64,000 nt of DNA from a virus (lineage: Duplodnaviria; Heunggongvirae; Uroviricota; Caudoviricetes). The position numbers and the translations under genes are program-made. The stretch is from positions 100,027-164,026 of the IMG/VR virus record IMGVR_UViG_3300043438_000976; one strand, written 5' to 3'. Numbering within the stretch: position 1 is the stretch's first letter; the number at the start of each line of letters is the position of its first letter. Shown here piece by piece: positions 13,951 to 34,175 of this stretch. The notes below the pieces were generated by a model that was given only the letters and a program-made list of their open reading frames with translations, was not told the origin of the DNA and made no database searches.

Positions 13951-14888
13951 AAAAAGTTTTAATTACAGGCGGCACAGGATTTATAGGCCACAATTTAGTT
14001 AAAGAGTTTTTAAAAGATCACAAGGTGGTGTGTCTTGTTCGTCCGGGATCTAAAAATTTAGATCGTTTGTTAGACGTATACAGTATGGTTGAATTTGTTA
14101 ACCATAACATTAGAGAACCATTACCAAATATACACGACATTGATATTATACTACACGCAGGTGCTAATCCTAGTGCAGCCGACAGTATCAACGACCCGGT
14201 GGGTGCTGTAACAGATAATGTTATTGGTACTGTAAACTTATTAGAGTTTGCTCGAAAATCAAAAGTAGAAAAGTTTGTTTACTACAGTTCCGGCGAAGTG
14301 TTTGGTCCTATTCCAATCGGGCAAGATAGTTATGAAAACGATGCATACAATTCTAACAGTCCTTACGCCGCAAGTAAAGCAGCAGGCGAAGAATTATGTG
14401 TTTCTTATAGTAAATCATTTGGGCTTCCGGTAAGTATTATTCATATCAATAACACATTCGGTCCAATGTGCCAGTCTAATAGATTTCCAGTTATTGCTAT
14501 GTCTAAAATTTTAAAGGGAGAACCTTTATCTATTCATGTAGGTCCTAGCAAAGCAATAGGCGGACGTAGATGGTTTCATGCAGAAGATGTTGCATTACAT
14601 ACTAGATTCATTTTAGATAATCAAAAAGACATTTGTGAAAAATGGAATAGTGCAGGTAGGAAGTTTGTTAATAACGCAGACCTTGCTCAGATTATTGCCA
14701 AGCTAATGAACAAAGAAATTAGTTTAGAATATGTGCCAGTCGATCGGCCTGGACACGATTTATGCTTTTCAGTAGATCCCTGGAAGTTATATGATAGAGG
14801 TTGGGTAGAACCTTCGAGTTTAGAGGATAGACTAAAACAAACAATTGATTGGTACTTGGCCAATCCAGAATGGTTATCAAGGAATTAA
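13947..14888 (+). CDS. NAD-dependent epimerase/dehydratase (extended SDR)
   Basis: N-terminal ITGGTGFIGHNL Rossmann motif and YAASKAAGE (YxxxK) catalytic motif. Confidence 0.65.
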   Translation: MKKVLITGGTGFIGHNLVKEFLKDHKVVCLVRPGSKNLDRLLDVYSMVEFVNHNIREPLPNIHDIDIILHAGANPSAADSINDPVGAVTDNVIGTVNLLEFARKSKVEKFVYYSSGEVFGPIPIGQDSYENDAYNSNSPYAASKAAGEELCVSYSKSFGLPVSIIHINNTFGPMCQSNRFPVIAMSKILKGEPLSIHVGPSKAIGGRRWFHAEDVALHTRFILDNQKDICEKWNSAGRKFVNNADLAQIIAKLMNKEISLEYVPVDRPGHDLCFSVDPWKLYDRGWVEPSSLEDRLKQTIDWYLANPEWLSRN

Positions 14889-14889
14889 A

Positions 14890-15828
14890 ATGATTAAAAC
14901 AGTATATGTAACAGGGTGTTTAGGTTTTATAGGTTATCATGTAACACTGGCCTGTTTAGAACGAGGATGGCACGTTCGTGGCATTGACAAAGGCACCTAT
15001 GCAGCCAATTGGAATTTGCTAGACGACTTAAAAAAATATAAAAGATTTATATTTGAAAACAAAGATATAAATGAAATAGACAAATTGTATGAGTGTGATT
15101 ATTTCATTAATACCGCTGCCGAGACTCATGTAGATAACAGTATTACCAGTAGCAAAGTATTTTTAGAAAGTAACATTAACGGAGTTCATCATATTTTAGA
15201 AAAAATAAAGGCTGCTAGAAAACAGCCTATATTCTTACATTTTTCTACAGATGAAGTTTATGGAGATATTGAAAAAGGATTCCATACAGAAGAAGATCTA
15301 TTAAAGCCTAGCAACCCGTATTCTGCTACAAAGGCATCGGCTGACATGTTAATTACAGCTTGGGCACGTACCTACGGTATATCTTATGTAATTGTTCGTC
15401 CTACTAACAATTACGGTATTGGACAATATACTGAGAAGTTTATTCCTCACACTATAAAATATTTGAGTTTAGGTAAAAAGGCAACATTGCACGATAACGG
15501 CACACCAAGACGTACATGGTTACATGCCAGTGATACAGCAGCCGCAGTTATTAAAATTATAGAAGTAGGCGTTGTAAACGAAGTATATAACATTAGTGGA
15601 AACTACGAAGAACAAAATATTGTAGTTGCCAGGAAGATTATTAAAGCAATGGGCCTAAAGGGAGATCCAGATCAGTATCTAGACACTACAGAAAAACGCC
15701 CAGGTCAAGATGTACGATATGCAATTGACGATGCTAAATTACAACACCTTGGCTGGAAACCAGTTGCTAAGTTTGATTCAGAGTTGAAAAGTATCGTTAA
15801 GTATTATACTAAAAACTTTATTTGGTAA
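14890..15828 (+). CDS. NDP-hexose 4,6-dehydratase-like extended SDR
   Basis: VTGCLGFIGYHV, TDEVYG and YSATKASAD motifs; start set at MIKTVYVTG (AGGAA SD) rather than the upstream overlapping ATG. Confidence 0.6.
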   Translation: MIKTVYVTGCLGFIGYHVTLACLERGWHVRGIDKGTYAANWNLLDDLKKYKRFIFENKDINEIDKLYECDYFINTAAETHVDNSITSSKVFLESNINGVHHILEKIKAARKQPIFLHFSTDEVYGDIEKGFHTEEDLLKPSNPYSATKASADMLITAWARTYGISYVIVRPTNNYGIGQYTEKFIPHTIKYLSLGKKATLHDNGTPRRTWLHASDTAAAVIKIIEVGVVNEVYNISGNYEEQNIVVARKIIKAMGLKGDPDQYLDTTEKRPGQDVRYAIDDAKLQHLGWKPVAKFDSELKSIVKYYTKNFIW

Positions 15829-16327
15829 AGCCGTTATTGTAGTTAACATTATCAAACTCTATTAAACTTGCACGAGGATTCTTAATCCAAAAGTCAACAG
15901 CATTTATAATCTGTTGATACGGAATTGAATCATACTGTGTCCAGTTTTCAAGGAATCCCATTTTCAGCAACAACATTGGAAATTGAGATTCCTTTTTTAA
16001 TTTCTTATGTTCAATTTCAATAAGTTTTTTTGCAGTAGCATAACGAATAATGTCTGGATTAGGGTAGTCAGCAGCCATAGATCCGCAAGTTATAATAGAA
16101 GTCTTATTATATAAACGTTTTAAAAATTCATATTGTATAGTGTGAAGGTGTAAATTGTTAATGAACAGATCAGCAGTCTCTGCTAAGTTGACAACTTCTT
16201 CAAACTTTTCAGGCAGTGTATAACCATTTGATCTAGACACACCCACAACCTCGTGACCTGATTGTGTTAAGTAATTGAAAAAGGCGAGCCCGAGCCCGCC
16301 TGTGTGTCCTGTGATTACAACTCGCAT
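15818..16327 (-). CDS. short NAD(P)-binding Rossmann-fold protein (reductase-like)
   Basis: MRVVITGHTGGLGLAF N-terminal dinucleotide-binding motif; 169 aa. Confidence 0.35.
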   Translation of the reverse strand: MRVVITGHTGGLGLAFFNYLTQSGHEVVGVSRSNGYTLPEKFEEVVNLAETADLFINNLHLHTIQYEFLKRLYNKTSIITCGSMAADYPNPDIIRYATAKKLIEIEHKKLKKESQFPMLLLKMGFLENWTQYDSIPYQQIINAVDFWIKNPRASLIEFDNVNYNNGFTK

Positions 16328-16833
16328 CAGCTATTTAAAACTTTTGCTACTGAGTTCATAACAGAAGCGATTCGGCCAATGTCACGAAGTTGTTCCACTG
16401 TATAGCCTTCAGTCTTTAATGTTTCGTAATGTGCTTTTACACAGAAGTGGCATTTTCCAACAATACTGGCTGCAAGACTAAACGCTTCAAAGTTTGATTT
16501 GGTAGTTCCGCCGTGTGACGCAATGGCGTTCATGCGTAACTGTGCTGGCAGGCCTTTTAGGGCAGGATCATCTGCCATCTCAACATATGGATACCATACA
16601 TTGTTCTGTGCCATGATACTGGCCGCAGTCATTGCTGACTCTGCATGTACTGGGGCATCTGCTAACAGGATGCTAAGTACTTTACCGTTGCCAGTTGCAG
16701 CCAATGCAGCCACAGCACACCCTAAGGCTACATCTGCATCCAGTGTGCTACGCAGTAGAACAGCATCAAGATTTAACTTGGTGTCCTTTGCATAGTCTGG
16801 CAACGCACCTTTTACTGATTCAATAAAACTCAT
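16327..16833 (-). CDS. AhpD-like / carboxymuconolactone decarboxylase family protein
   Basis: CHFCVKAH (CxxC..H) AhpD core motif; adjacent to peroxiredoxin. Confidence 0.5.
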   Translation of the reverse strand: MSFIESVKGALPDYAKDTKLNLDAVLLRSTLDADVALGCAVAALAATGNGKVLSILLADAPVHAESAMTAASIMAQNNVWYPYVEMADDPALKGLPAQLRMNAIASHGGTTKSNFEAFSLAASIVGKCHFCVKAHYETLKTEGYTVEQLRDIGRIASVMNSVAKVLNS

Positions 16834-17225
16834 TTTGTCATCTCCGCTAATTGTTTATATCCATTATATGTAGGATGTACCTTATCTTTCGATAACTCTG
16901 GGATTGTCAAAATAGTATCACCAAAACTGTTAGCAATGATTCTAACAATATCCTGCACCGCTGGTTTAATAGGCGGCATTACCCACATGACTTTTTTTGC
17001 ATAGATTTGTTGCCTCAGTAACAACAATTCTTTAAAAGAGTTTATAGTATCAGGATCATTAGTTCCGAGACTGATAATCACAGTATTGGCAGATAAATCT
17101 TTGACAATATTTCTATTGTTCCAGTTGTAGCTGTTAATACCGCTCTTAACATAAGCAACACATTCTTTACGAACTGTGCTAATGCCTTGAGCAATACTAT
17201 CGCCTAAGATAAGGCATTCTAACAT
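16830..17225 (-). CDS. SGNH/GDSL hydrolase
   Basis: block I LGDSIAQG, block III SLGTND, block V DKVHPT. Confidence 0.55.
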   Translation of the reverse strand: MLECLILGDSIAQGISTVRKECVAYVKSGINSYNWNNRNIVKDLSANTVIISLGTNDPDTINSFKELLLLRQQIYAKKVMWVMPPIKPAVQDIVRIIANSFGDTILTIPELSKDKVHPTYNGYKQLAEMTK

Positions 17226-17764
17226 TATAGAGTCTCGCCACCAACTGTACGGTTACAAGCACATAGCTCGCCTGTTTGTAACGCATCAAGAACACGAAGT
17301 GTTTCTTCTGGGTTGCGACCAACGTTCAAGTTGTTCACAGTTACGTGTTGGATCTCGTTGTTGGGGTCAACAATGAATGTTGCACGAAGTGCGGCACCTG
17401 CAGGTGCATAGAATACGCCCAACTGCTCAATCAAACTCAACTCACCACGCTGTGTGTCTGCGAATTGATTATGACGAATGTTCTTTAGATCAGCGTGAGC
17501 ATTTTGCCAGCTGACTTTACAGAACTCATTGTCTGTTGACCCTGTGAGCAATACTGCGTCACGGTCATCAAAATCTGCGGCTAGTTTGTCGTAGGCTACA
17601 ATTTCTGTAGGACAAACAAATGTAAAGTCTTTTGGATAGTAAACGATTACTTTCCACTTGCCTGGAAATGACTTCTCTGTAATTTCGAAGAATGCATCTT
17701 CTGGTTGTCCAAACTTTACGCCTGTTACTGCGAATGGGGCTAATTTGTCACCGACTGTTTTCAT
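17225..17764 (-). CDS. ahpC: peroxiredoxin (AhpC/Prx1 family)
   Basis: FTFVCPTEI peroxidatic Cys motif; AGGAG SD before ATG 17764. Confidence 0.85.
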   Translation of the reverse strand: MKTVGDKLAPFAVTGVKFGQPEDAFFEITEKSFPGKWKVIVYYPKDFTFVCPTEIVAYDKLAADFDDRDAVLLTGSTDNEFCKVSWQNAHADLKNIRHNQFADTQRGELSLIEQLGVFYAPAGAALRATFIVDPNNEIQHVTVNNLNVGRNPEETLRVLDALQTGELCACNRTVGGETL

Positions 17765-17797
17765 AATATCTCCTGTGTGTTAAATGAAAAAATTTCT

Positions 17798-17830
17798 GTA
17801 CATCTTATGTACTGTACAGTTATTGTACAT
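17798..17830. promoter_or_regulatory. operator-like cluster of four TGTACA palindromes upstream of ahpC, in a divergent intergenic region
   Basis: TGTACAtcttaTGTACTGTACAgttatTGTACA plus flanking ATTGTA...TACAAT inverted repeat. Confidence 0.4.
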
Positions 17831-17972
17831 ATATTTACAATAGAAATCAACTAAAATCTCATGGTTTTCCATTGATTGTTCCTATAACGCTAATAGGTTA
17901 TTAAGTACCAGGTTTTAAAAATTATATACCTAGTAAATACGATTACACCACAACTTAGGACTAGGAGCAAAA

Positions 17973-18254
17973 ATGGGCGATATTTTTAAAATTATCGGCG
18001 ACCTCGGTATGCCAGTTGCGGCAGCACTTGCAGGCGGGTACTTTGTGTACTTAACTATCAAGCTGTTGTTGCAGGGCGTTCTTGGGTCAATAAAAGGAAT
18101 GGCTGGTATTATCACAGCACTGGACAATCGTGTAAAAACTATGAATCACGATGTTATACGTATCGATACAATTGTATCCAATGCTCTAGGTCTGCGTCCT
18201 GATGCAGATCGTATTGCTCGTGCAGACGGCAAAAACGATGCAAGGAGAGATTAA
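17973..18254 (+). CDS. hypothetical small membrane protein
   Basis: hydrophobic N-terminal segment; GGAGCAAAA SD-like before ATG. Confidence 0.3.
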   Translation: MGDIFKIIGDLGMPVAAALAGGYFVYLTIKLLLQGVLGSIKGMAGIITALDNRVKTMNHDVIRIDTIVSNALGLRPDADRIARADGKNDARRD

Positions 18255-18445
18255 TGTTGCACATTGATTATCGTTGGGATCTACATCCAGACAAGATTGT
18301 TTTAGATGAAGAACTTAATACAGATAGATTAGGATGGCGAGCAGGCGACATGTTTAAGTTTATCAATGTCGACGGTAAGCAAATGCTAGTCAAAATAGAT
18401 CCTCTTGAAAAATTCATAAGGAGTAAACAGTATGAGCAAGTATGA
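18254..18445 (+). CDS. hypothetical protein (63 aa)
   Basis: ATGA overlap with upstream gene; no recognisable motif. Confidence 0.25.
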   Translation: MLHIDYRWDLHPDKIVLDEELNTDRLGWRAGDMFKFINVDGKQMLVKIDPLEKFIRSKQYEQV

Positions 18446-18520
18446 AGCATGGTGGGACAGTTTACCCCAATCAACCAAAATTTATTTAAAAAGCCAACCA
18501 ATTTGGCACGATAGCGACAT

Positions 18521-18913
18521 GTGGAGAGCCGGCATGTTCGGATTAGTAGTAGGATTCATTCTAGGAGTAATATTATAATGGATGTCGTTGAATTAGTTAA
18601 CAAGTACGGATTCCCTATTGTTATGGCAGTAGGCATGGGATTCATTATCAAGTATGTGTGGGAATGGGCTACTAAGGAAGTGAAACCAGTTATTAGCGAT
18701 GCTAACACAGTTTTGATTGCACTAATTGATCGTATACGTATGTTGGATAATGACCTTATCAGACTTAACCAAAAAGTTAATACAGTGTTACATCTACGTG
18801 GTAAGACAATTGAGTTTGAACGTGTAGAAGCAGAGAAAGCAATTAATAAAATAGACCGCTCTAAAAGCGAGGGTAACGAAGATACTAAGTCAGCTACATC
18901 AGGTGAAAGTTGA
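18521..18913 (+). CDS. hypothetical membrane / coiled-coil protein
   Basis: TM segment FPIVMAVGMGFII followed by charged helical region. Confidence 0.3.
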   Translation: MESRHVRISSRIHSRSNIIMDVVELVNKYGFPIVMAVGMGFIIKYVWEWATKEVKPVISDANTVLIALIDRIRMLDNDLIRLNQKVNTVLHLRGKTIEFERVEAEKAINKIDRSKSEGNEDTKSATSGES

Positions 18914-18949
18914 TTTGAGAAAGTTTTGCTAGATTGTGAAGCCATACGA

Positions 18950-18985
18950 CACCCTCTACGGAGGGTGATCTTATGATGTTTGCTG
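18950..18985 (+). terminator. hairpin (caccctc-tacg-gagggtg) with U-rich tail after the 18521 gene
   Basis: 7-bp GC-rich stem, 4-nt loop, followed by atcttatgatgtttg. Confidence 0.4.
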
Positions 18986-19325
18986 AGTTGCTCTGCACAC
19001 ACTTGACAGTAGGTATTTGATCTTCACTCTTCTGGGCTCTGTACCTTACCCAACCTACTACGACTTTTAAAGAAACTGCGGTGTCACTGTTCCTATGAGA
19101 GTATAGAAAATCTTTTCAACTATTATGACAATCCAAACGTTTCGTGCCAGTGGGCAGACGTTTAAGCATCCTCTCGGGTAGTGGATTGAAATCGCCCTCG
19201 CAATGAGGCTAGGTCATTGGGTCACACGTCAGAACCTTGACCAACAGAAAATTACCGGTGCTGTTTCACCTTAAGTTGCGAATAATGGGAGTGTGAATGT
19301 AAGTGTGTAACTTACATTATACAGG

Positions 19326-19370
19326 CTATCCAAAATGATTGCGACCGAAATGGCGATCTATTTTGGATAG
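19326..19370 (-). terminator. long hairpin (11-bp stem ctatccaaaat/attttggatag) just downstream of the cyclase gene
   Basis: perfect inverted repeat directly after stop codon at 19385 on the minus strand; no clean U-run. Confidence 0.35.
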
Positions 19371-19384
19371 TAGGCCTGCAGATA

Positions 19385-21439
19385 TTACTTGCTTGTGGCT
19401 ATGAATACGCCATTCCAGTCGGCTGGAAGTATTTGAGTCTTTTGAAACTCACAGCGTTCTATCCACATGCTGTAGTATTTTTTCATTTGCCCGTCGAACT
19501 CATCTTTCAGTTCTTCACACAGTGTAATGGCATCGTCCCATTTCTGCTGTCTATAACATGAGTGCATTTCATTATGAGTTTCTTGTGCTAACAAATATTC
19601 TGCGGCAACAGTTACGTCAGGGTCAAGTACTGTATAGATAGCAACTCCTACACTCTTACCTTTAACTGCTAGGTCGTCAATCTTAAGGAAGAAGAACTCG
19701 TCAGCACATCGTTGAACGGTTGCTCCACCTACTAATAACAGGCAACCGTATTCTTTACACTTGCTTTCGATACGTGCGGCTGTGCTAACGGCATCGCCTA
19801 GTACATCGTAACTGTGTCGAGCTGTACTGCCCATCTCACCGATGTAGCCCAATCCTGTATTAATGCCTGCACCCATACCAACTGGTGGTCTGCCTTGCGG
19901 AACAATCACGTCTCGGTTAAAAGTATCTACAGCTCTAAGCATCTTTAATCCTGTGCGAACTGCTGTTGACGGGTGATTAAGATCTTCAATGGGTGCATTG
20001 TGTATGTGCATACTGGCATCACCGATGTACTTGATAATCATTCCGTCTGCATCTAATACAGGTTGCGTAATAGCGTCCATGTAGCCGTTCATTATACGTG
20101 TAAGCCCCGCAACATCATCACCAAAGCTTTCACCTAGGGGTGTAAAGCCACGTAAGTCTGAAAACAGTATGCTGACTTCTTTCTTAACACCCTTCTTAAT
20201 AAGGTCTGGATTTTCTTGCAGTAATCTAACCACTGTAGGACTAGCGTAACCTGCAAACTGTTTCTTGATTGCCTGCTTCTGTAAAAACTCGCTTACGAAT
20301 TTAACTCCGTATGCATGTAATGCCACAAGCAATATGCCACTGACAAAAGCAGTAGCATCAAACAGATAAAGATACTGGCTATAAGCATACATGCTGACAG
20401 CAACACCACCCATAGAAAGAGCAACCACTGTTCCAAGTCCAACATATACCCACCTTGTTAAAAATAATAATAGTACGCCTGCTGCTAACAGTACAATAAT
20501 TTCCACACCATCTGCGTAATCCGGACGCTGGATAGTTACATTGTTCATCATTGTGCCTATTACTGCGGCCTGTACTTCGTGTGGAAATACTGCACCCTTA
20601 CTAGTGGGTAATGGATTAGCAATACCTGCGGCTGTTGGGCCTACGATAACAATAGCACCTGCTAGATCTTTTGGCAGGTTTACTGCACTAACGCTGTGAC
20701 TTGCCTGACTCCAATCAATCCATATGCGACCTAAGTTATCTGTTGCTACAGGACCAAACTTAGGTATACGCATCTTCTCAACTCCACCTTCAAATAGCTT
20801 GACTTGGAATGTTGAATCGCCTGCCGCTACGCGGAGTGTTTCCATAGCTAGACTAGGATATAACTTACCGTCAACTGTGACAATTAACGGCAATCTGCGA
20901 TTAACACCATCTACTTCTGGCAGTGTGTTTACGATACCAACACCTGCTGCTGCGTTCTCTAACACAGGTACGTTGGCAATCAAACCCGGATACTGTATAA
21001 TTTGATCCAAGTACTCAGGACCTAATACTGCCGAACCGGGATTGCGTGGTTCGTTCTTTGTTTTCTGTGCAGGAATGCTGCCTAATACAACTGGGTATTC
21101 TTTTAGAGCTTTACCCAGTTGACTGTCACCACCTGTACGATCTGTTTCTGGCATGAGTACGTTAAGTACCACAAGGCCCGCTCCCCTCTGATATAAATCT
21201 CGTATAAGTCGGGAATACTCAACACGAGGTAACGGCCATTGTCCATATTTGTCTAAGCTCCCTTCATCAATGTTTACTGTAACAATGTTGTTAACAGTAG
21301 TTTCTTTAGATGTAATCAGCGTATCAAAATAGCGTAGTCTTATACTTTCTACAAAGACAGGATCAGCAATTCTTATACTTAAAATAAGTGCCAATGTCAG
21401 CAATGCTGTCCATGGACTTGTTAGGATTTTTTTCAACAT
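19385..21439 (-). CDS. CHASE2-sensor class III adenylate/guanylate cyclase
   Basis: N-terminal signal/TM, periplasmic CHASE2-like region, TM cluster, then cyclase block SILFSDLRGFTPLGE...GDAS; 684 aa. Confidence 0.7.
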   Translation of the reverse strand: MLKKILTSPWTALLTLALILSIRIADPVFVESIRLRYFDTLITSKETTVNNIVTVNIDEGSLDKYGQWPLPRVEYSRLIRDLYQRGAGLVVLNVLMPETDRTGGDSQLGKALKEYPVVLGSIPAQKTKNEPRNPGSAVLGPEYLDQIIQYPGLIANVPVLENAAAGVGIVNTLPEVDGVNRRLPLIVTVDGKLYPSLAMETLRVAAGDSTFQVKLFEGGVEKMRIPKFGPVATDNLGRIWIDWSQASHSVSAVNLPKDLAGAIVIVGPTAAGIANPLPTSKGAVFPHEVQAAVIGTMMNNVTIQRPDYADGVEIIVLLAAGVLLLFLTRWVYVGLGTVVALSMGGVAVSMYAYSQYLYLFDATAFVSGILLVALHAYGVKFVSEFLQKQAIKKQFAGYASPTVVRLLQENPDLIKKGVKKEVSILFSDLRGFTPLGESFGDDVAGLTRIMNGYMDAITQPVLDADGMIIKYIGDASMHIHNAPIEDLNHPSTAVRTGLKMLRAVDTFNRDVIVPQGRPPVGMGAGINTGLGYIGEMGSTARHSYDVLGDAVSTAARIESKCKEYGCLLLVGGATVQRCADEFFFLKIDDLAVKGKSVGVAIYTVLDPDVTVAAEYLLAQETHNEMHSCYRQQKWDDAITLCEELKDEFDGQMKKYYSMWIERCEFQKTQILPADWNGVFIATSK

Positions 21440-22080
21440 CCAGTATTTAGTTGGTTAGCAAAGTCTAAAAGCAGACGGTGATGTTGTCCATTGTGATACT
21501 TGCCCGCCATCCATGAGTAGCTATCGTACCAATAGTTTTCACTTTCTGGATGGCAACCTATTACACCGATATTGTTTTGTATAATAGCCATAGCGTCTCC
21601 GTTTGCATATGTGGCAATGGTGTTAAACTTAGCAGAGTTACCTACTAAAGCACAACCATCATACCAAAACATATTCATTGGCTGGTTTTTCCAAGTTATA
21701 CTGATATTTTTAGCGTGTGGTCTGCGTGTATCTGTATTGGGTTGCGTTGAGTATTGAACAGCATCAACGCTGTCCAGTATATCAAAATAGTGTTGGCCGG
21801 CCCAATACGCACCCATGCATATACCTAAATACTTACCACCACCGCTTACAAATGTTTTAACTCTATCTTTAGTATATTTAAATGCACGGTCAAATGTACT
21901 AGCATCACCAAAGCCGCCAGGAATAACTATCATGTCTACATCATCAAAGAAGTTATCTTCTAAGGGATTGATGCTGAATATTTTAAAGTTATAATGTGAC
22001 TGTAATGATCGTATAACTCCATTGCCTGACTGTACGCTACATTTAGGATCATACAAAAACAGGGCAACGGTAGGTTTCAT
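21433..22080 (-). CDS. class I glutamine amidotransferase-like (DJ-1/GATase1 fold) protein
   Basis: IVIPGGFG and nucleophile elbow GICMGAY (G-x-C-x-G). Confidence 0.4.
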   Translation of the reverse strand: MKPTVALFLYDPKCSVQSGNGVIRSLQSHYNFKIFSINPLEDNFFDDVDMIVIPGGFGDASTFDRAFKYTKDRVKTFVSGGGKYLGICMGAYWAGQHYFDILDSVDAVQYSTQPNTDTRRPHAKNISITWKNQPMNMFWYDGCALVGNSAKFNTIATYANGDAMAIIQNNIGVIGCHPESENYWYDSYSWMAGKYHNGQHHRLLLDFANQLNTGC

Positions 22081-22083
22081 AAA

Positions 22084-22368
22084 TTAGCAATTCCATCGGC
22101 GTAGTGCTAATGCTTTTGGTGTAGGTTTTCCGTTAGGCTTTTTCATAGGACCTTTATTGCCACTCATACGGGCACAGAAACTCTTACGGCGTTTAGCATC
22201 CTTGCTACCTGCTTTTAATTTGCTAGGCTTAGTAGTTACTGCTGTCTTTAACTTACTACCCGGATTCTCTCTTCGGTAAGCATTTACTGCCTTTTGGCTT
22301 AGACCATCAGTCTTATCTTTTCTGTTGACTTTATTCCAGTCTTCGTTAATAAATTCGTGTGCTCTCAT
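22084..22368 (-). CDS. small highly basic protein with T4 capsid-targeting-sequence-like N-terminus (MRAHEFINED)
   Basis: K/R-rich 94 aa; N-terminal MRAxEF(I/L) shared with ORF 28532..30220; compare T4 internal-protein CTS MKTYQEFIAE. Confidence 0.3.
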   Translation of the reverse strand: MRAHEFINEDWNKVNRKDKTDGLSQKAVNAYRRENPGSKLKTAVTTKPSKLKAGSKDAKRRKSFCARMSGNKGPMKKPNGKPTPKALALRRWNC

Positions 22369-22375
22369 GATGTAT

Positions 22376-23245
22376 TTATTTTAGTTTATCCGATATGTAT
22401 AGTGCAGCACCCATGCTTGACCCTGCATCGCCTGGATTTTTTGGAACATAGCTGTGTTTAAATGTAGATGAAAGAAGCCTTTTTGCAGGCACATTATAGG
22501 CACATCCGCCTGTAAAAACACAAGAATTACTGTGAAAAGAGGCAAGTTTAAAGCAATTTTTTATCTGTTCCATGAACACACGTTGTACGCTGGCAGCTAC
22601 GTCTGCACGATCTTTTTCTGCTACTTCCCAATCCCAGATTCCTTTATGCAGATTCTTTGTTAGGTAGCCGCAGACTGTTAAGTAGTTTGGTTCCCAATCA
22701 CCAGATGTTGCTAGCATAGTAAGTTTGCTCTCTTCTTGGACAGGTTTAAATCCCAGTAACTCTGTAAATGCTGAGTAGAACAAACCAAGGCTATAAGGAT
22801 AACCTTTTGAAAATACTTTTTTAAATTTTTGATCTTTATAATGCCAGATACTCACAGTATCCCACTCTCCAATTGCATCGGCTACTACGACCGCAGTCTC
22901 AGCTAATCTACTTTCATATACTGCATTGGCTGCATGACTTAAATGATGCGGCACATAATAAATTGGAACAGAAGGTATGTTAAATTTTTTTAGATAGTAA
23001 TGAGGTAGCTGATCAATGCTGACTGCATCTCTGTATTGCCCTGCGTATAGCTGCCGTGACTTTTTCAGCCAAGGCCTTTCGTACCAAGCAATTGCATCTA
23101 CTGCTCCGTATGATAATGCACGATCAACTAGTTCAGGACAAAGGTCAACTCCACACAGGGATCGTTCATGGTGCAATATTTGACCATTGTCCACAACCGC
23201 AATACTAGCATCGTGGTTAAGAGCGTTTATTCCTACTACAGTCAT
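22376..23245 (-). CDS. carbamoyltransferase, NodU/CmcH family (Kae1-like N-terminal domain only)
   Basis: motifs VPHHLSHAANA, ADAIGEWDT, TGGCAYN, NPGDAGSSMGAAL. Confidence 0.55.
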   Translation of the reverse strand: MTVVGINALNHDASIAVVDNGQILHHERSLCGVDLCPELVDRALSYGAVDAIAWYERPWLKKSRQLYAGQYRDAVSIDQLPHYYLKKFNIPSVPIYYVPHHLSHAANAVYESRLAETAVVVADAIGEWDTVSIWHYKDQKFKKVFSKGYPYSLGLFYSAFTELLGFKPVQEESKLTMLATSGDWEPNYLTVCGYLTKNLHKGIWDWEVAEKDRADVAASVQRVFMEQIKNCFKLASFHSNSCVFTGGCAYNVPAKRLLSSTFKHSYVPKNPGDAGSSMGAALYISDKLK

Positions 23246-23354
23246 TTGTAAATGAAAGGGTCTCTTTTACGAAACTCTTTTAATTTTTTACGTATGCGTC
23301 TACGCTCTTGGAACTCACGGAATAGAGATATGATAAAGTTCATATCTCTATTTA

Positions 23355-25100
23355 TTACTGTCTAACTGTGGTGTTACATCCTGATAAAATTGCACAACTC
23401 TGTATTAGAGTAAAACTCTTGCCGCCGCTTTGTTCTAGATCTACAGTTGCGGCCCCGCCGGCATTGGTCACATCAATTCTTGCATTATTAGCCATGGAAC
23501 CAAATTGATTAACATTTACATTGTGCCCGTTGCCCGTCATCTTAACATCGAGATAATGTTGTCCCGTGCCTGTTTGGCTAGTGACTAGCGTATTGTTATT
23601 ACCGCTAACTGTGCTGAATAACAACTGACTGTTGCCCTGTGTGTGATTTGCAGTGTTGTTATTGCCGTTTATCACAGTTTCAGTATAATTAGTACCAATG
23701 GTATTTGTCTGGCTGGATGTCAAGTTATTTTGATAACCATTAACATCTGCTGTTACGTAGTTTGAACCAACTTGTGTGATGCCGATAGTATTAGTTCCAG
23801 CTCCGTCTAAAGTCAACTCAACTCGGTTCTTTGTTCCTGTTACGTTGATAGTTATGTTATTGTTGTCCCCACCTATCTGATCAACATGCACCGAATTACT
23901 ATAAGGTGAAGTACTGTTAACCCAAGTATTGATTCTAGTCTGTTGTGCAGCTCTACTAGAATTATTAACATAAGTACCGCCACTTTGTATAGTTTGATTT
24001 GATGGTGCATTTGTCTGTGTGATTGTTCCGCCTACTACAGTTGGACCGCAGTCAGCACAGACGCTGCCAGCAGTACCCGGATTGTTTGGAGTACTGCCCG
24101 AACCTGTTGCAGTGCTAGTGACTCCGTCATTTAAGTCGTAGTAAAAAGTGATTTCAGCGATCTGCATACTGTCGCAGTTAAGGCCGCATCCGTCTCCTGA
24201 TTTAGTAGTAGGGAATAAAATAAAGTAATAGACATAGGCAGTAGTGTTGCCTGTTTGTATCTCCGGACTGGTCCAAAATCTTTGATCGCTTAAAGACACG
24301 GTATCCTGTTTAATTAATACCCAATTTACGCCGTCATTGCTTCCGTAGAGTTTGTAACTAGTAGGATCGCGTCCTTCAAAGTCGTTAGCAGTAGTTAAGG
24401 TAAATTTTTGTACTACACGACCTTGACTTAATTTAACTGTAACTCCTGCATTCTTTTTATCAAAATTTAAGTATTTTGTACCAGTATTACCGTCGAACGC
24501 ATTGCCTGCACCTTCGCCTGCTGGACTGTTATTACTAGTTGGGTAAATGTTACTAATCACAACAGGCGTGCTGTTAGTCTTGATTGTTTTCCAATCAGTT
24601 GTAGGCGGAGGAGGGGCTGCTGTTTGTCCTGCTGATAACGGAGTTGAACTCGCATAGGTATAATTGTTTAAGTCTGTGCTAGTAACACTAGTATCCATGT
24701 TAGTGAAACTGGCACTAGCACCGTAGTTATAACCCTGAGCAGTAGTAATAACATTGCCAAAGAATCCCGAACCGATATAAAAAATGGCACCATTGCCTAG
24801 TGCTGTAATGTCACCGTGGTCGTGAACAATGCTGTGTTGTGTTCCATTGCTGTTCATTAACTTCAATCCGTGCTTACCTGGATTGGTTGTGCTGTCAAAG
24901 AATTGGAAGTACTGTCCTGAGGTTACGGTTACTGTTTGAAAGTTTTTATTATAAGGTGCAATAAAGTTGCTGGCGTTTAGTGTGTTACCACTCCAGTAAT
25001 ATTGAACATCGAATATTTGATTGATACCAAACTTACCGTCAGTGATAGCACCAAAGGCATTTGAACATAATAACATTAATGCTAATAATATTTTCTTCAT
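23355..25100 (-). CDS. secreted multidomain protein: F5/8 type C (discoidin) domain plus C-terminal curlin-like repeats
   Basis: signal peptide; NAFDGNTGTKYLNF...YKLYGSNDGVNWVLI discoidin signature; C-terminal S/N/Q/G/T repeats resembling CsgA repeats. Confidence 0.45.
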   Translation of the reverse strand: MKKILLALMLLCSNAFGAITDGKFGINQIFDVQYYWSGNTLNASNFIAPYNKNFQTVTVTSGQYFQFFDSTTNPGKHGLKLMNSNGTQHSIVHDHGDITALGNGAIFYIGSGFFGNVITTAQGYNYGASASFTNMDTSVTSTDLNNYTYASSTPLSAGQTAAPPPPTTDWKTIKTNSTPVVISNIYPTSNNSPAGEGAGNAFDGNTGTKYLNFDKKNAGVTVKLSQGRVVQKFTLTTANDFEGRDPTSYKLYGSNDGVNWVLIKQDTVSLSDQRFWTSPEIQTGNTTAYVYYFILFPTTKSGDGCGLNCDSMQIAEITFYYDLNDGVTSTATGSGSTPNNPGTAGSVCADCGPTVVGGTITQTNAPSNQTIQSGGTYVNNSSRAAQQTRINTWVNSTSPYSNSVHVDQIGGDNNNITINVTGTKNRVELTLDGAGTNTIGITQVGSNYVTADVNGYQNNLTSSQTNTIGTNYTETVINGNNNTANHTQGNSQLLFSTVSGNNNTLVTSQTGTGQHYLDVKMTGNGHNVNVNQFGSMANNARIDVTNAGGAATVDLEQSGGKSFTLIQSCAILSGCNTTVRQ

Positions 25101-26212
25101 CTTTGTACTATGGTAATAATAGTATTACCGCCCGAATTTACTCTGTTACTAAATTCAATACTACCTTGTATCTGCGTTATCAAACTGTTCTGTGTCAACG
25201 GTGTTGTTACGCATTGTATATCGCTACCGTTATCTCTACATAACCCAATTTGACCCTCGTCCTTAGTCACAATAATACCGCTTGCTCTTTTCCAGTCTGG
25301 CAATATGCTGTCCGTTTCGTCTTTTAGATAATCTTCATCTAAGCCGCTACCTATTACATCAAATATGTTAGCTAAAAAATTATTATCTAAAAAGTTACGA
25401 GTAAGTCTATCTTCAAAAAATTGTGCATTTTGTTGATCTAATTTGTTTTCAAGTCCTTGCTCTCTCAAGAAGTCAGCATCTAATGCATTATGATTTAGAC
25501 TTGTTTCTCTTTTACCGCCCTGCTTTAGTTCTTGTGGAGGACTTATGATTAACAAATTACTAATAGCATCTTCACTGAGAGTAAGGATAACAGGTTTAGT
25601 AGGCAGTGCAGCCCTGCTAGCTACTTTGGTTGCTTGGAATGCTTGATTAAGAATAACCTGACCAACATCTGTTTCAACTATGATAGTCCCTACAACACAA
25701 TTGGCTTCAATATCTCTATTTGTACGAGTAGGACGATCATTTGGGCAACTTGGTAACAAAATTACAGTACTGCCACCCATTTCATCTACGGTGGCGGTAA
25801 AATCAGTTCCACGAACTGAGATAGTAGCAGTGGGTGTGTTAACTGCAACGTTCTGCGGTGAGTTCTTGGCAATTTGTCCACTGGCGTATCTAACAGTGCC
25901 CAATGCAACTTTAACACCCAGCTTACCGGATTTTGATTTTGAATCGTATACAAAGTCGTCAATGACCAATCTAGAGTTTTCATTAACCTGTACTCGAGTC
26001 TGATCCTCGAACGTTATGCCCACTTTGCCCGCTGCTGTTTTCACAGAGTCGTTCATTTCTACTCCCGTGCCCTTGTTGCCTGTTAGAGTTGAATTCTTTC
26101 TCTGTATGCTGGGAGGTGCGTTCAGCAACTCCGTCACTGTTCCGATGCTGGCTTGACTGTTCAGCGAGGTACTGATCAATAAGCCTAATAAGATTAAGCG
26201 ACATACAGACAT
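25097..26212 (-). CDS. secreted FecR-domain-like protein in the curli-like operon
   Basis: signal peptide; TISVRGTDFTATV block typical of FecR domains. Confidence 0.35.
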   Translation of the reverse strand: MSVCRLILLGLLISTSLNSQASIGTVTELLNAPPSIQRKNSTLTGNKGTGVEMNDSVKTAAGKVGITFEDQTRVQVNENSRLVIDDFVYDSKSKSGKLGVKVALGTVRYASGQIAKNSPQNVAVNTPTATISVRGTDFTATVDEMGGSTVILLPSCPNDRPTRTNRDIEANCVVGTIIVETDVGQVILNQAFQATKVASRAALPTKPVILTLSEDAISNLLIISPPQELKQGGKRETSLNHNALDADFLREQGLENKLDQQNAQFFEDRLTRNFLDNNFLANIFDVIGSGLDEDYLKDETDSILPDWKRASGIIVTKDEGQIGLCRDNGSDIQCVTTPLTQNSLITQIQGSIEFSNRVNSGGNTIITIVQR

Positions 26213-26220
26213 CTCACACC

Positions 26221-27000
26221 TTAATTACCAGTAGTAATGCTGACTGTGTTTCCGCTTCCTGCCACAGCAAGATTAACATTGGTATTGATAGTACCACTTT
26301 GTACAACTGTGGTATTGTTATTAGATCCATTGATATTCAATGTTGCAATGTGTCCGTCGGCACCACCACCACTTTGAGTAATATTCGTTGCGTTACTAGC
26401 ACCTAATATGGTTAAATCTACTGTGCCTTTTGCACCAGTTAAATTTAGTGTAGTGTTATTTGCAGTTCCGCTACTCTTATTGATGTTTACAGTAACTTGA
26501 TCCGCATCAATTGTAGCAACAATTTGATTCAAGTTACCGTCTGTAACAGCATTGAATATGTTATTAGATCCTAGTAAATTAAGGTTAGCAATAGTATAAT
26601 CGCCTGTTTGATCAATAGAAACAGTATTACTATTTGCAGTACCCTGCTCGCTATTGTTCATATTGATAGTACCGATACCGCTATTACCTGTTACTCGATA
26701 TATAACACTAGTATCAACGCCGCCACTAGCTGTGGCAGTTACAACACCCAAGTTTAAAATGTTAGCACTACCAATTTGTTCAACAATCAAAGTTAAATTA
26801 TCACCTTTGATTTTTGACGGAGTAGTGTTGCCTGTGCCCGTGCCTTGTATGCCGCGGACGCGGTTGGTTGCACCATCTTGTAGCATAGTGATAACAGAGT
26901 TGTCACCTGTTTGATCAATATAGATACTATTGTCTGCTGCGAAAACTTGTAAAGCGACTAACATCACAATCGCTGTCATTACTTGATTTAGCTTCTTCAT
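26221..27000 (-). CDS. curlin-repeat (CsgA/CsgB-like) secreted protein
   Basis: signal peptide; repeats of S-x-I-x-IDQTGD-N-S / Q.G..N pattern resembling curlin pseudorepeats. Confidence 0.5.
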   Translation of the reverse strand: MKKLNQVMTAIVMLVALQVFAADNSIYIDQTGDNSVITMLQDGATNRVRGIQGTGTGNTTPSKIKGDNLTLIVEQIGSANILNLGVVTATASGGVDTSVIYRVTGNSGIGTINMNNSEQGTANSNTVSIDQTGDYTIANLNLLGSNNIFNAVTDGNLNQIVATIDADQVTVNINKSSGTANNTTLNLTGAKGTVDLTILGASNATNITQSGGGADGHIATLNINGSNNNTTVVQSGTINTNVNLAVAGSGNTVSITTGN

Positions 27001-27056
27001 GTTTTTATCAGTTCTTTTGAAACTGCTCCTTGGGGTGTTATGTATTGCTCCCCGAC

Positions 27057-27971
27057 TTACTTGGCCCTGACTTCTTTGCTTCCTTCAGCATCTTTTCTGA
27101 CACTGGACTGCGGCGTTGCGGAAGGGCCTTCTGGGGCTCTTTCGCTTTCGGTGTTCTTTTGAACCAACTCATTTTTTGCTCCCTTATAATTCCAAAGCCC
27201 CTTACGAGCTCCTTCTTTGATAAGTTCAACCACTCCGGCTTCGATTGCTGATTTTACAGCATATGTTCCTGGCTCGTTTATTGTTAATCCTGCTTCGCCT
27301 TCAAATGCCCTAGTGCCTAGGTCAAAGAATTTAAGAGCAGTTATTGCATCAGCCGAACTAAGAATTGTTTTTTGCACAGTTACAGATGCTAATACTTTTC
27401 CAGTATTAACACTCACTGCTCTTAGGCTTATGGTTACAATATCCTGACTCCACTGAGTCTGTTTTCCAATACCAAAGACTCTTGCACCAATGCCGCCACT
27501 CTTTGTTGAACTGTCATAACCTACTATACCACCTTCAATAATCATGCCAGCAAACTGCATTGGCATTAATGGCTTTGCAGCCGCTCCTTCATATGCTTCA
27601 CGCATCTGACGAATAATTAATCTTTCTTTGGTCAAGTTATCGATACCTACCCGCTCAACAACATCAAACCATTGTCCTCGACCTACATCTTGCAGTGCTT
27701 TGATCAAGAAGCTTTCTGCACCTTGTGTAACTGCGGAACTTAAACTGGCAATATTGGCCTGCGGCTTTCTCTGACCAGTCATATCTTTAAAACTATACAC
27801 CGCAACACTAACAGGTTTTCCGTGTGCAGGCTCCTGTATAGTATCAAATTCTTTCTGCATCATCACTGCGGTAACTTCGGGCTTGTCCGCCTCTACTAAA
27901 GGATTATTTTGATGTATTGCACACCCTGTTAGAAAACTTGTAAAGACTAGTACTAATAATATTTTTTTCAT
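27057..27971 (-). CDS. csgG: curli production assembly/transport lipoprotein CsgG
   Basis: lipobox LTGCA; near-colinear similarity to E. coli CsgG (VYSFKDMTGQRKP, IIEGGIVGYDSSTKSGGIGARVFGIG, KTILSS). Confidence 0.9.
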   Translation of the reverse strand: MKKILLVLVFTSFLTGCAIHQNNPLVEADKPEVTAVMMQKEFDTIQEPAHGKPVSVAVYSFKDMTGQRKPQANIASLSSAVTQGAESFLIKALQDVGRGQWFDVVERVGIDNLTKERLIIRQMREAYEGAAAKPLMPMQFAGMIIEGGIVGYDSSTKSGGIGARVFGIGKQTQWSQDIVTISLRAVSVNTGKVLASVTVQKTILSSADAITALKFFDLGTRAFEGEAGLTINEPGTYAVKSAIEAGVVELIKEGARKGLWNYKGAKNELVQKNTESERAPEGPSATPQSSVRKDAEGSKEVRAK

Positions 27972-27972
27972 A

Positions 27973-28455
27973 TTATATCCCCGGAACTACAAATTGACTT
28001 AACGGAATATCAATAGTGGTATTGATATCTGGACCTACTACAGTTAGACGAATAAAGTTGCCGTCTACTAATATAACTTTTTGCCAGCTGATTTTGCTGC
28101 CTTGGAAATCAACCTCACCTTTACAATCTGCTGTAGGAGTAGTACTGGTGCATCCGCTATTAGAAAACATAGCAGTTGCTACGTTTTGGCTAACTTGTGC
28201 ATAGATTCTAGACTCTAAGTTGTTTAAAAACTTAGCCAAGTTAGTGTTCTTTTTGTCAGCAGCCTCTTTGTCTAATGCTGCTTGAAGTCTATCTTGTAGA
28301 GCTTTTCTACGAGTCGCTTCTTGATTTTCGATAGTTAAGACGTGACTACTGTAACCTGCTCCGTTGAAGGCCGGACTTTTAAAAGTAAAGTCATTTATTG
28401 GTGCAGCCTGTACCGTCATTGCAGACAAGGCCAGGCCGAGAATTAAAAATCGCAT
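27973..28455 (-). CDS. csgF: curli assembly protein CsgF-like
   Basis: signal peptide then FTFKSPAFNGAGYSSHVL matching the CsgF N-terminus FQFRNPNFGGNPNNGAFLL; translationally coupled to csgG. Confidence 0.65.
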   Translation of the reverse strand: MRFLILGLALSAMTVQAAPINDFTFKSPAFNGAGYSSHVLTIENQEATRRKALQDRLQAALDKEAADKKNTNLAKFLNNLESRIYAQVSQNVATAMFSNSGCTSTTPTADCKGEVDFQGSKISWQKVILVDGNFIRLTVVGPDINTTIDIPLSQFVVPGI

Positions 28456-28531
28456 CCTAAGTCCCCAGTATAGTGTATTAGTATTTACAGGGTCAGAATG
28501 CGATATTTACATAGCAGTTTATTAATCTAGA

Positions 28532-30220: not shown

Positions 30221-30226
30221 AATAAG

Positions 30227-30895
30227 TTATTTACCAATTTCAGGGAACAGCACTTGCTCAACAAACTGTCGGATAGTTGCTTCCGGCACTCCCATAGCAA
30301 TCATGCTGCGATACACATGGGGATTTTGTTTCTGATTTTGACAGTAGTAATTTTGTTGGTCAGTAACATCGACCCCGTTAATGCGATCTCCTACATTGTG
30401 TAGATAGTAATCTAGGGTTTTAATTCCTAGATCTATAATATTATCTAACTCGTGCTGCTCGCTAATATTACCCGCTGCTACCATAGCAGGGCTAAAAATA
30501 TTACGAGCCCACCCGGGTAATTCTCGTTTCTTGTTCCAAGTTACGTCTTTTACAGTATCTGCAAACCAGTCGTGCAACCAATGGCTTTTGCTTACTAGAC
30601 TAAAATCATGAAACGCACCTGTGATCTTGTTCTTGCCGCAGACAGCATCAAAACCCCAGATAGGACTAGGATCGTCTGGGTGTGGGAATACTGTTGCATG
30701 TAGGATGTATATTCCGTGTGTTGTAGTCTTGTCTACTACTTCCACGTGTCCTCTACGAAACAGATTACTATGGTATACATGATTTTCCCAGTCGTATTGA
30801 TCTAAACTAGGATCTTCTGCTCTGTACCCTGCATGTTCCATCATGGCCTGCATAGTTTCAGCACACTGCTGCATCTGTGTCCATACTGTGCTCAT
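30227..30895 (-). CDS. ferredoxin-dependent bilin reductase (PebA/PebB/PcyX-like), paralogue 1
   Basis: HVEVVD...VFPHPDDPSPIWGFDAVCGKNKITGAFHDFS matches the FDBR core. Confidence 0.55.
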   Translation of the reverse strand: MSTVWTQMQQCAETMQAMMEHAGYRAEDPSLDQYDWENHVYHSNLFRRGHVEVVDKTTTHGIYILHATVFPHPDDPSPIWGFDAVCGKNKITGAFHDFSLVSKSHWLHDWFADTVKDVTWNKKRELPGWARNIFSPAMVAAGNISEQHELDNIIDLGIKTLDYYLHNVGDRINGVDVTDQQNYYCQNQKQNPHVYRSMIAMGVPEATIRQFVEQVLFPEIGK

Positions 30896-31608
30896 TGATG
30901 TGTTCCTATCTTAGGAAACAGGCAGTCCTGTATAAACACACGAACGTCTTCTGGATTCAAACCCAATGCAGTCATTACTTTAGGAGTATGGGGATTCTGT
31001 CTTTGATTTTCACAATAGTAATCCTGTGCAGGACCAGTGTCTAATGCAGTTCCGTTTGTCTCGCCTACTGTGTTAATGAAATGCTTTAAGTTATTAATAG
31101 CAGTAAAATACAGTTGTTGAAGCTCAGTTGGATCGTTAACGTTTCCCGCACTGATCATGCTAGGAGTAAAGATACGCTCTGCCCAGTCGGGCAAACGTCT
31201 AACTTTGTTCCACTCTAATTTTTGTGCTTCGTCTGCAAAATAATCTAGCATCGGATGCTCTGGATCACCAGCAGGACTAAAGTCGTGAAACGCACCTGTT
31301 ACTTTGTTTTTGCCAGCTACTACATCAAATCCAAAGATAGGTGCAGGATTATGAGTATGCGGAAACACACAGCAATGCATCATCCATAGGCCCTTGGTTT
31401 CTCTAGCATCTACTACATCGATGTGTGCTCTGCGATATAAGCTACTGGTCCAGACTTTGTTGTACCAACTGAATCTTTCTAAGCCCGGCTCTTGTACTTC
31501 TGTACCACTGAGATTGAATTGTCTTTCAAACTCAGTTTGTATATCAATTAGACTGTTCCAGACCAAGCTCATTGTTATATGACTCCATAATTTTGATAGC
31601 CCATTCAA
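30892..31608 (-). CDS. ferredoxin-dependent bilin reductase, paralogue 2
   Basis: HIDVVD...VFPHTHNPAPIFGFDVVAGKNKVTGAFHDFSP; tandem with paralogue 1. Confidence 0.55.
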   Translation of the reverse strand: MNGLSKLWSHITMSLVWNSLIDIQTEFERQFNLSGTEVQEPGLERFSWYNKVWTSSLYRRAHIDVVDARETKGLWMMHCCVFPHTHNPAPIFGFDVVAGKNKVTGAFHDFSPAGDPEHPMLDYFADEAQKLEWNKVRRLPDWAERIFTPSMISAGNVNDPTELQQLYFTAINNLKHFINTVGETNGTALDTGPAQDYYCENQRQNPHTPKVMTALGLNPEDVRVFIQDCLFPKIGTHQ

Positions 31609-33627: not shown

Positions 33628-33662
33628 ATAGACTTTCTAAAAAGGGGCCGGAGCCCCTGAAC

Positions 33663-34094: not shown

Positions 34095-34175
34095 TGTTTT
34101 TCTCCTTAATAAGCAAGAACATTGTGGGGAACTATTCCCCATTTGTAGAACCCTAACGGCGTCCTACAAATTTAT

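Follow-up and report, generated by a model that had tools for sequence, protein, structure and literature searches.

We analyzed a 64,000-nucleotide stretch of viral DNA (IMG/VR record IMGVR_UViG_3300043438_000976, positions 100,027 to 164,026; hereafter the window). Its minus-strand gene at 19385..21439 encodes a class III nucleotidyl cyclase with a CHASE2 sensor domain and stands at the end of a set of curli-like secretion genes. The open reading frame (ORF) runs from ATG to TAA and specifies 684 amino acids plus the stop codon, in agreement with an initial annotation of this DNA. The protein matched phrog_35576, a PHROG of ‘unknown function’, over its full length (E = 9e-193). Pfam searches returned both of the families that had been proposed, each far beyond its curated cutoff: CHASE2 (PF05226) scored 136.3 bits over residues 16-322 (cutoff, 26.3; E = 1.8e-39) and spanned profile positions 3 to 256 of 257, and Guanylate_cyc (PF00211) scored 55.3 bits over residues 419-596 (cutoff, 21.9; E = 8.2e-15). 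The motif SILFSDLRGFT occupies residues 423-433.

Hydropathy analysis gave a single transmembrane (TM) segment at residues ~11-31 and a hydrophobic block at 307-383. An AlphaFold2 model based on a 76-sequence alignment (mean predicted local distance difference test score, 91.4; predicted template modelling score, 0.72) consists of a helix at 9-25, an extracytoplasmic alpha/beta domain at 28-300, membrane helices at 309-329, 331-356 and 362-396, the last of which extends into the cytoplasm, a cyclase fold at 418-605 and a three-helix unit at 609-667 (helices 609-630, 634-644 and 653-667). Hydropathy, the Pfam matches and the model show the following order along the protein, all on the minus strand: a first TM helix (residues ~9-31; 21347..21415), a periplasmic CHASE2 sensor (32-306; 20522..21346), three TM helices (307-383; 20291..20521), a cytoplasmic linker or cyclase-transducer helix that prolongs the fourth TM helix (384-418; 20186..20290), the catalytic domain (419-604; 19628..20185) and a C-terminal helical tail (605-684; 19388..19627). 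We infer a membrane orientation in which CHASE2 lies outside the cytoplasm, with one TM helix on its N-terminal side and three on its C-terminal side. The initial annotation had described a periplasmic sensor flanked by TM helices and a class III cyclase domain, and both parts of this description were borne out.

When the model was compared with the PDB by Foldseek, the top 50 matches were all class III cyclases. The catalytic part superimposed on CyaB of Pseudomonas aeruginosa (3r5g) with a target TM-score of 0.88-0.89 and a root mean square deviation of 1.9 Å. The class IIIb enzymes CyaB and CyaC (Spirulina, 1wc0) matched residues 419-605 best, in structure as well as in sequence (phmmer E = 1.6e-17 and 4.2e-16, respectively; deviations of 1.9-2.2 Å), although their N-terminal sensors are different. 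For the CHASE2 fold the same search was uninformative, as the top 50 consisted exclusively of cyclase catalytic cores. A megablast search with the cyclase gene against 50,697 phage records gave no match, and relatives were found at the protein level only. Among cultured phages, these are Methylophilales phage Melnitz (gp103, QZI94387; 51% identity over 96% of the protein) and Pelagibacter phage HTVC008M (AGE60353; 36%), in both of which the homologue is annotated as an adenylate/guanylate cyclase. The C-terminal tail is common to Melnitz and the bacterial CHASE2 cyclases; in the alignments R662 is invariant and W675, G677 and K684 are nearly so. It is absent from the HTVC008M protein, having been lost in that lineage.

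A co-directional minus-strand cassette (28455 to 19385) ends with the cyclase; its order is csgF, csgG, curlin-like, FecR, curlin-like, a variable insert and cyclase. The first gene (27973..28455) encodes a CsgF-like protein with a signal peptide (Pfam CsgF, E = 1.3e-06), and the second (27057..27971) a CsgG-like outer-membrane lipoprotein, the curli secretion channel (Pfam CsgG, E = 4.8e-49; also matched in NCBIfam), with the lipobox LTGC. The initial annotation had mentioned neighbouring csg genes, and these matches confirm that they are real. The first fibre-like gene (26221..27000) encodes a secreted curlin-repeat-like protein with a signal peptide and repeats, which matches gp100 of Melnitz and shows weak NCBIfam similarity to CsgA and CsgB, under the cutoffs (E = 2e-5 and 1e-4). 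It is followed by the gene for a periplasmic FecR-domain protein (25097..26212; Pfam FecR, E = 2.2e-11; phrog_37870). The second fibre-like gene (23355..25100) encodes a secreted F5/8 type C protein (Pfam F5_F8_type_C) with a signal peptide and C-terminal curlin-like repeats, and its phmmer match is the ‘curlin associated repeat protein’ gp102 of Melnitz (E = 1e-14). Three inserted genes on the same strand precede the cyclase: a carbamoyltransferase N-terminal domain (Nol-like) gene (22376..23245; Pfam E = 3e-24; phrog_1601), a DUF6321 gene (22084..22368; Pfam E = 2.1e-18) and a class-I glutamine-amidotransferase-like, BPL_N (GATase1-like) gene (21433..22080; Pfam match; close relatives only), the stop of which overlaps the cyclase start by 7 nt.

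The arrangement is widely conserved. Melnitz and HTVC008M show the same cassette order without the three inserted genes. We also examined 61 informative IMG/VR viral loci, defined as those with at least 7 kb of sequence upstream of the cyclase, and found the curli/FecR genes within 10 kb of the cyclase in 59 of them. CsgG and FecR were both upstream of the cyclase on the same strand in 56 of the 61; among the five exceptions, three carry the cassette convergently downstream, and two are contigs that end too early to judge. The distance from the last curlin-like gene to the cyclase ranges from 0 to ~3.6 kb of variable genes (loci L075-L154), and because of this variation the junction directly upstream of the cyclase is an insertion hotspot. 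The initial annotation had further supposed that the cyclase could reprogramme second-messenger signalling of the host, for example toward biofilm or curli in view of the neighbouring csg genes, or could detect the state of the envelope; both roles are conjectural. The conserved linkage strongly supports an association between cyclase and csg genes, but the csg genes concerned are members of a phage cassette and not regulated host genes, and curli are missing from the hosts published for related phages (PMC9599517, PMC9004378).

Earlier publications and phage databases already contain this gene family and its link to phage curli genes. Wittmers et al. (2022; PMC9599517) described csgF-csgG-csgA/B followed by FecR, and often by a second curlin gene and an adenylate cyclase, in podoviruses and myoviruses among the pelagiphages, and argued that selection acts on the whole region. 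They considered FecR and the cyclase as non-canonical additions to the phage type VIII secretion system (T8SS) region and read FecR as an iron-related regulator, with CHASE2 unmentioned. Zaragoza-Solas et al. (2020) and Buchholz et al. (2022) discussed phage curli genes, with no mention of the cyclase, FecR or CHASE2. The window cyclase therefore belongs to the same family, in the same cassette order, as the pelagiphage enzymes, and differs from them in its carrier phage and in the three unrelated genes before it. In the podophage version of the T8SS region a histidine kinase gene precedes csgF (Wittmers et al. 2022). We did not find one upstream of csgF in the window, where a 562-aa ORF at 28532-30220 has no Pfam or PADLOC match and falls only in a PHROG of unknown function. 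Because the kinase was reported for podophages, its absence does not exclude membership in the myophage version of the cassette. As regards transcription signals, positions 17500-30500 contained 43 predicted sigma-70 promoters (34.8 +/- 4.7 in shuffled sequence) and 13 intrinsic terminators (8.7 +/- 2.8), a yield no better than that of shuffled sequence and one from which no operon boundaries were derived, and the late-promoter motif TATAAATA did not occur between 17000 and 31000.

Next, we considered the FecR-domain protein. It has a cleavable-looking signal peptide and a FecR domain at residues 57-151, and it contains no TM helix and no anti-sigma domain, which rules out an anti-sigma factor of the FecR/FecI type. 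Neither an extracytoplasmic function sigma factor nor a TonB-dependent receptor was present among the scanned cassette neighbours, and a sequence search of the PDB with the FecR protein gave nothing meaningful. A scan of 185,579 species genomes yielded 66 loci. The full csgF/csgG/FecR/cyclase cassette occurred there only on short contigs resembling phage DNA binned into metagenome-assembled genomes (MAGs), and the loci on long bacterial contigs or complete chromosomes contained no CsgG or CsgF. Among the ~50 bacterial loci without CsgG/CsgF, ~28-29 carried a FecR homologue within 1.7 kb of the CHASE2 gene, often abutting it. All 10 of the CHASE2 neighbours that we sampled contained the Pfam FecR domain, one of them (L039) marginally under the gathering cutoff (23.8 against 24 bits). 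The bacterial CHASE2 proteins adjacent to FecR have three different outputs, namely a cyclase, a hybrid histidine kinase and a SpoIIE-type phosphatase. For this reason, the pairing with FecR tracks the sensor and not the output.

Similar pairs can be recognized in published systems. The CyaD1 and CyaD2 cyclases of Sinorhizobium meliloti combine CHASE2 with a class III cyclase, and the gene for a FecR-domain extracytoplasmic protein (smc02177) is adjacent; the likeness is one of description. A CyaD1 construct without CHASE2 is constitutively active, so CHASE2 is inhibitory there. Unlike the phage gene, these cyclases are bacterial and chromosomal, answer a plant signal, act via the CRP-like protein Clr and have no curli genes beside them. 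The ‘BiofilmReg’ operon of Burkholderia (PMC5192318), which is tied to biofilm formation, likewise joins a periplasmic FecR-domain protein to a CHASE2 sensor, in the order response regulator, LysM/FecR protein, CHASE2 histidine kinase and DUF4136. It differs in its histidine-kinase output, in the LysM domain on the FecR protein and in not being phage-borne. Pairings of FecR with a CHASE2 sensor like that of Burkholderia also occur in Desulfobulbales-type loci (L058, L063 and L067). Because of the FecR-CHASE2 gene neighbourhood, and on that ground only, we regard the phage FecR protein as probably a periplasmic partner of the CHASE2 sensor and not an iron regulator. In addition, a Sulfurovum MAG (L072, 6626-7732) encodes, adjacent to a CHASE2 cyclase, a FecR domain fused to an OmpA-like outer-membrane beta-barrel. 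Judging from this fusion, FecR partners might anchor CHASE2 signalling at the outer membrane.

We then turned to the active site. The two metal-binding aspartates, the loss of which would have indicated a pseudo-cyclase, are both present: D428 in FSDLRGFT (codon 20156-20158, minus strand, as for all codons below) and D474 in KYIGDA (20018-20020) align with those of solved cyclases in the PDB. The substrate-specifying pair, which had been left for inspection as K/D or E/C, is K470 (20030-20032) and D545 (19805-19807) in the same alignment. Among class III cyclases, Lys paired with Asp specifies ATP (PMC4215837), as does Lys with Thr, and Glu with Cys specifies GTP; ATP is thus the predicted substrate. 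In the transition-state pair, R556 (19772-19774) is present and Asn is replaced by S552 (codon AGC, 19784-19786), so that five of the six canonical catalytic residues are intact. The change of Asn to Ser had gone unremarked in the initial annotation. In CyaB and CyaC the metal-binding Asp, Lys and Arg align with those of the phage protein, and Thr and Asn stand where it has Asp and Ser.

The signature D-K-D-D-S-R was found in 120 of 120 close homologues and in seven of the 150 representatives of 50%-identity clusters, which share as little as 40% identity with the query; D-K-D-(S/T)-N-R was found in 134 of the 150. The Asp/Ser (D/S) form was also present in 74 of the 80 IMG/VR loci, and Melnitz shares it. 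HTVC008M has S/N at the positions equivalent to D545 and S552, and the bacterial CHASE2 cyclases that we examined have (S/T)/N in all cases but the divergent L047 (R/N) and one sequence that could not be aligned. Judging from these counts, the changes to Asp545 and Ser552 appear always to occur together. Among the D/S lineages Ser552 is encoded by TCN in 45 cases and by AGY in 34, and the AGC codon in the window is one transition away from Asn. Because serine has been kept in both codon families, Ser552 is under selection.

Comparison of the two halves of the protein suggests that they have separate evolutionary histories. Between the window cyclase and that of locus L114, identity is 80% in CHASE2, 60% in the linker and 48% in the catalytic domain; between the window and Melnitz, the corresponding values are 36%, 85% and 77%, and between L114 and L011 they are 44%, 94% and 82%. 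Such values point to an exchange of at least two catalytic types (D/S and T/N) among phage cassettes, with a breakpoint probably near the boundary between membrane and linker, where residues 384-418 would form an approximate recombination boundary. Owing to this domain mosaicism, a neighbour-joining tree did not resolve the D/S sequences as a strictly monophyletic group; seven sequences of other types fell inside it, so that the D/S signature does not mark the single clean clade that had been expected, and we claim no single origin for it.

Based on these results, we propose, with moderate confidence, that the gene product is a receptor-type class III nucleotidyl cyclase of the inner membrane, an adenylate cyclase most likely, and that its gene closes a mobile curli-like (type VIII) secretion cassette of phages, with FecR as the partner of the cyclase and cyclic AMP (cAMP) as its output. 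The soluble periplasmic FecR-domain protein would be the cognate partner of CHASE2, as in the bacterial FecR-CHASE2 pairs. The two would signal a cue from the periplasm or the envelope. A plausible one is the condition of the CsgG/CsgF channel built by the phage and of its curlin-like substrates, or alternatively something that enters via this channel. By analogy with S. meliloti CyaD1, CHASE2 may keep the cyclase off until the cue arrives. Once the cue is there, the cyclase would act as a catalytic homodimer and raise cAMP in the infected cell, and this cAMP could alter the expression of host or phage genes, or physiology, during infection.

Several points weigh against this proposal. Catalytic activity in the phage cyclase family is a prediction, and the canonical transition-state Asn is missing from the protein; in mammalian adenylyl cyclase, Asn and Arg are reportedly both essential and the change of Asn to Ser is said to be strongly deleterious. 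No gene for a cyclic nucleoside monophosphate (cNMP)-binding protein, a CRP-like protein or a phosphodiesterase was found among the ~45 window ORFs scanned, so that no receiver was identified; a metallophosphoesterase at 62570-63454 was considered as a cNMP phosphodiesterase and rejected, as it is weakly LpxH-like and not CpdA-like. As regards the partnership of FecR and CHASE2, the three unrelated genes of the window separate the cyclase from the rest of the cassette, and in S. meliloti smc02177 is not required for perceiving the plant signal. A mirror-tree comparison over 69 cassettes gave only a weak signal, with a Spearman r of 0.44 between FecR and CHASE2 and of 0.17 between FecR and the catalytic half, and some pairs of cassettes have 80% CHASE2 identity but 43% FecR identity. 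With such a correlation and these clear counter-examples, we did not use co-evolution as evidence of interaction.

Rather unlikely, in our view, is an active cyclase whose product is not cAMP but cGMP, a promiscuous purine product or a pyrimidine cNMP, with D545/S552 acting as a specificity switch; such a product might interfere with cyclic-nucleotide defence or signalling of the host. The coupled, clade-specific and selected double substitution affects a substrate-contacting and a ribose-positioning residue, the literature ties absence of the Asn to a relaxed ATP/GTP preference in Rv1900c, and PADLOC returned fold-level matches to Pycsar PycC models. However, Lys470 and Asp545 are the classical ATP pair, with no Glu/Cys or other guanylate-cyclase signature. 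In the same place, the sister phage cassettes hold ordinary class IIIb-like domains of the (Ser or Thr)/Asn type, which suggests that the same output is required. The best PycC match (residues 416-562; E = 6.2e-14) is no better than the generic Pfam cyclase match, and we rejected a Pycsar defence cyclase, since the match is one of shared fold only, no cNMP-binding effector is adjacent and PycC has no CHASE2. A broader speculation, which we likewise rate as doubtful, is that D545/S552 is a phage-specific, horizontally exchanged active-site type that changes the product (to a non-cAMP or promiscuous cNMP) or its control, and that it forms, together with the secreted FecR-domain protein, a trans-envelope relay that conveys the state of the phage-built CsgG/CsgF channel and its curlin-like fibres to the cytoplasm. 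If this were true, the D545/S552 type and the FecR relay would constitute a virus-encoded outside-in signalling pathway in hosts without a curli system of their own.

A pseudo-cyclase, in which loss of the Asn leaves CHASE2 as a membrane scaffold or a nucleotide-binding sensor with no second-messenger synthesis, seems distinctly unlikely. It would account for the Ser at 552, given the reported need for Asn and Arg in the mammalian enzyme, and for the absence of an effector from the window. Yet five of the six canonical residues are intact, and the catalytic half is the best conserved part between the window and Melnitz (77-85%, against 36% for CHASE2). Serine is kept in both of its codon families, with Asn just one transition away. 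The change is also coupled to a second one in the active site, from Ser/Thr to Asp, a pattern suggestive of re-tuning instead of decay. There are also naturally active cyclases that lack the Asn: Rv1900c has His at this position, and Ma1120 of Mycobacterium avium has Ala and loses its activity when Asn is introduced. Ma1120 resembles the phage protein as an active adenylate cyclase of the K/D type with a small residue replacing Asn; it differs as a soluble mycobacterial enzyme with Ala and not Ser, and the likeness is at the level of the shared fold. Because of these exceptions, the protein stays a member of the class III family with a variant active site. Since Ser is under selection and such active enzymes exist, we regard the phage cyclase as probably functional with a re-tuned active site, possibly of lower activity or altered specificity.

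The cue sensed might also be superinfection or the timing of lysis, such that CHASE2 and FecR detect envelope perturbation and cAMP tunes lysis or lysis inhibition. Buchholz et al. (2022) proposed a role in lysis timing for the CsgGF pore of Melnitz, the window carries rIIA and rIIB, and two paralogous small membrane proteins (phrog_18771; 17973-18254 and 18521-18913, plus strand) are encoded directly downstream of the cyclase, convergent with it. These proteins could possibly be lysis or envelope factors, but phrog_18771 has no known function, the rII genes are ~17 kb distant, and no holin, endolysin or spanin was identified beside the cassette. The evidence is purely circumstantial, and we consider this explanation very unlikely; it amounts to our cAMP-receptor proposal narrowed to one particular cue, and does not stand as a real alternative to it.

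Few accessory modules in abundant aquatic phages are as widespread, or as poorly understood, as the curli-like cassettes, whose function is described in print as a mystery. The identification of the cyclase as a CHASE2 receptor, together with the habitual FecR neighbours of such receptors, turns a loose association into a concrete and testable two-component hypothesis. To our knowledge, no ligand or partner has been established for CHASE2, and the FecR pairing therefore bears on CHASE2 itself. The Asp/Ser variant and the swapped sensor and catalytic halves offer natural enzyme pairs for structure-function work. Four findings appear to be unreported: the recognition of the sensor as CHASE2, with its general association with FecR; the Asp/Ser variant under selection; the exchange of sensor and catalytic halves; and the occurrence of the cassette in an rIIA/rIIB phage that is probably jumbo.

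Finally, we examined the carrier. The window is phage DNA, as the initial annotation had assumed: it carries rIIA and rIIB (PHROG E = 2.7e-129 and 9.3e-78), NAMPT and NMNAT/NUDIX genes (38351-41618 and 42888-46539, minus strand), a tRNA array and a permuted transfer-messenger RNA (tmRNA), its cyclase has homologues in Melnitz and HTVC008M, and at least 578 IMG/VR viral contigs carry relatives of the cyclase. That the gene is bacterial and the window a bacterial contig or a mis-binned MAG fragment is a negligible possibility, even though many homologues are deposited under bacterial MAG names and the identical protein occurs on contigs reaching 381 kb, because of the phage families of NAMPT and NMNAT, the rII genes, the tRNA array and the Melnitz-like tmRNA in the window, the cassette in cultured phages and on viral contigs, and the true bacterial homologues on long chromosomal contigs, which have no more than ~30% identity and no csg genes. 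The rIIA protein is closest, at 29% identity, to the ~287-kb PA5oct group of Pseudomonas jumbo phages, and relatives of the cyclase, beyond the identical copies, are found on contigs of 190-360 kb. Because of this rIIA affiliation and the identical cyclase on contigs of up to 381 kb, the carrier is likely a large T4-like phage, possibly a jumbo phage, and apparently no close relative of Melnitz.

The tRNA array (275-8351, minus strand) contains 34 genes that cover most amino acids. Among them are a 92-nt tRNA-Ile(tat) at 1347-1438 and an abnormal call with a 2-nt anticodon at 3471-3556 (Rfam tRNA score, 34.7 bits). The permuted, two-piece tmRNA lies at 63763-63986 on the minus strand (Rfam RF04321; 47.4 bits against a gathering score of 47). 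Melnitz was reported to have a two-piece ssrA under a glutamine riboswitch (Buchholz et al. 2022); in the window, Rfam gave no riboswitch at the gathering score. After the cyclase stop there is a 470-nt non-coding gap (18914-19384) with two strong hairpins at its beginning. We considered it as a non-coding RNA and rejected this, as Rfam gave no match (best E = 0.57), conservation was confined to L075 and, in part, L101, and the fold z-score was -1.6.

Directly upstream of the curli cassette, at 30227-33322 on the minus strand, are genes for a heme oxygenase, two tandem ferredoxin-dependent bilin reductases and a FabF-like beta-ketoacyl synthase. These are auxiliary genes for pigments and lipids, of a kind that one would sooner expect in a cyanophage. 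Further host-like accessory genes, several of them envelope-targeting, lie between 33319 and 61655: a ClpS adaptor, Hsp20, an SPFH/Band 7 protein, an S11 D-Ala-D-Ala carboxypeptidase and a small porin-like outer-membrane barrel (33319-34142, 37272-38156, 48615-49391 and 61206-61655, minus strand). On the other side, beside the cassette, a redox cluster at 15818-17764 (minus strand) comprises an AhpC/TSA peroxiredoxin, a GDSL-like protein, a carboxymuconolactone-decarboxylase-family (AhpD-like) protein and a short-chain-dehydrogenase fragment. A sugar-modification cluster at 9447-15828 (plus strand) encodes a GT34 glycosyltransferase, a DegT aminotransferase, a split transketolase, a methyltransferase and two epimerase/dehydratase proteins, which suggests remodelling of the cell surface or of lipopolysaccharide.

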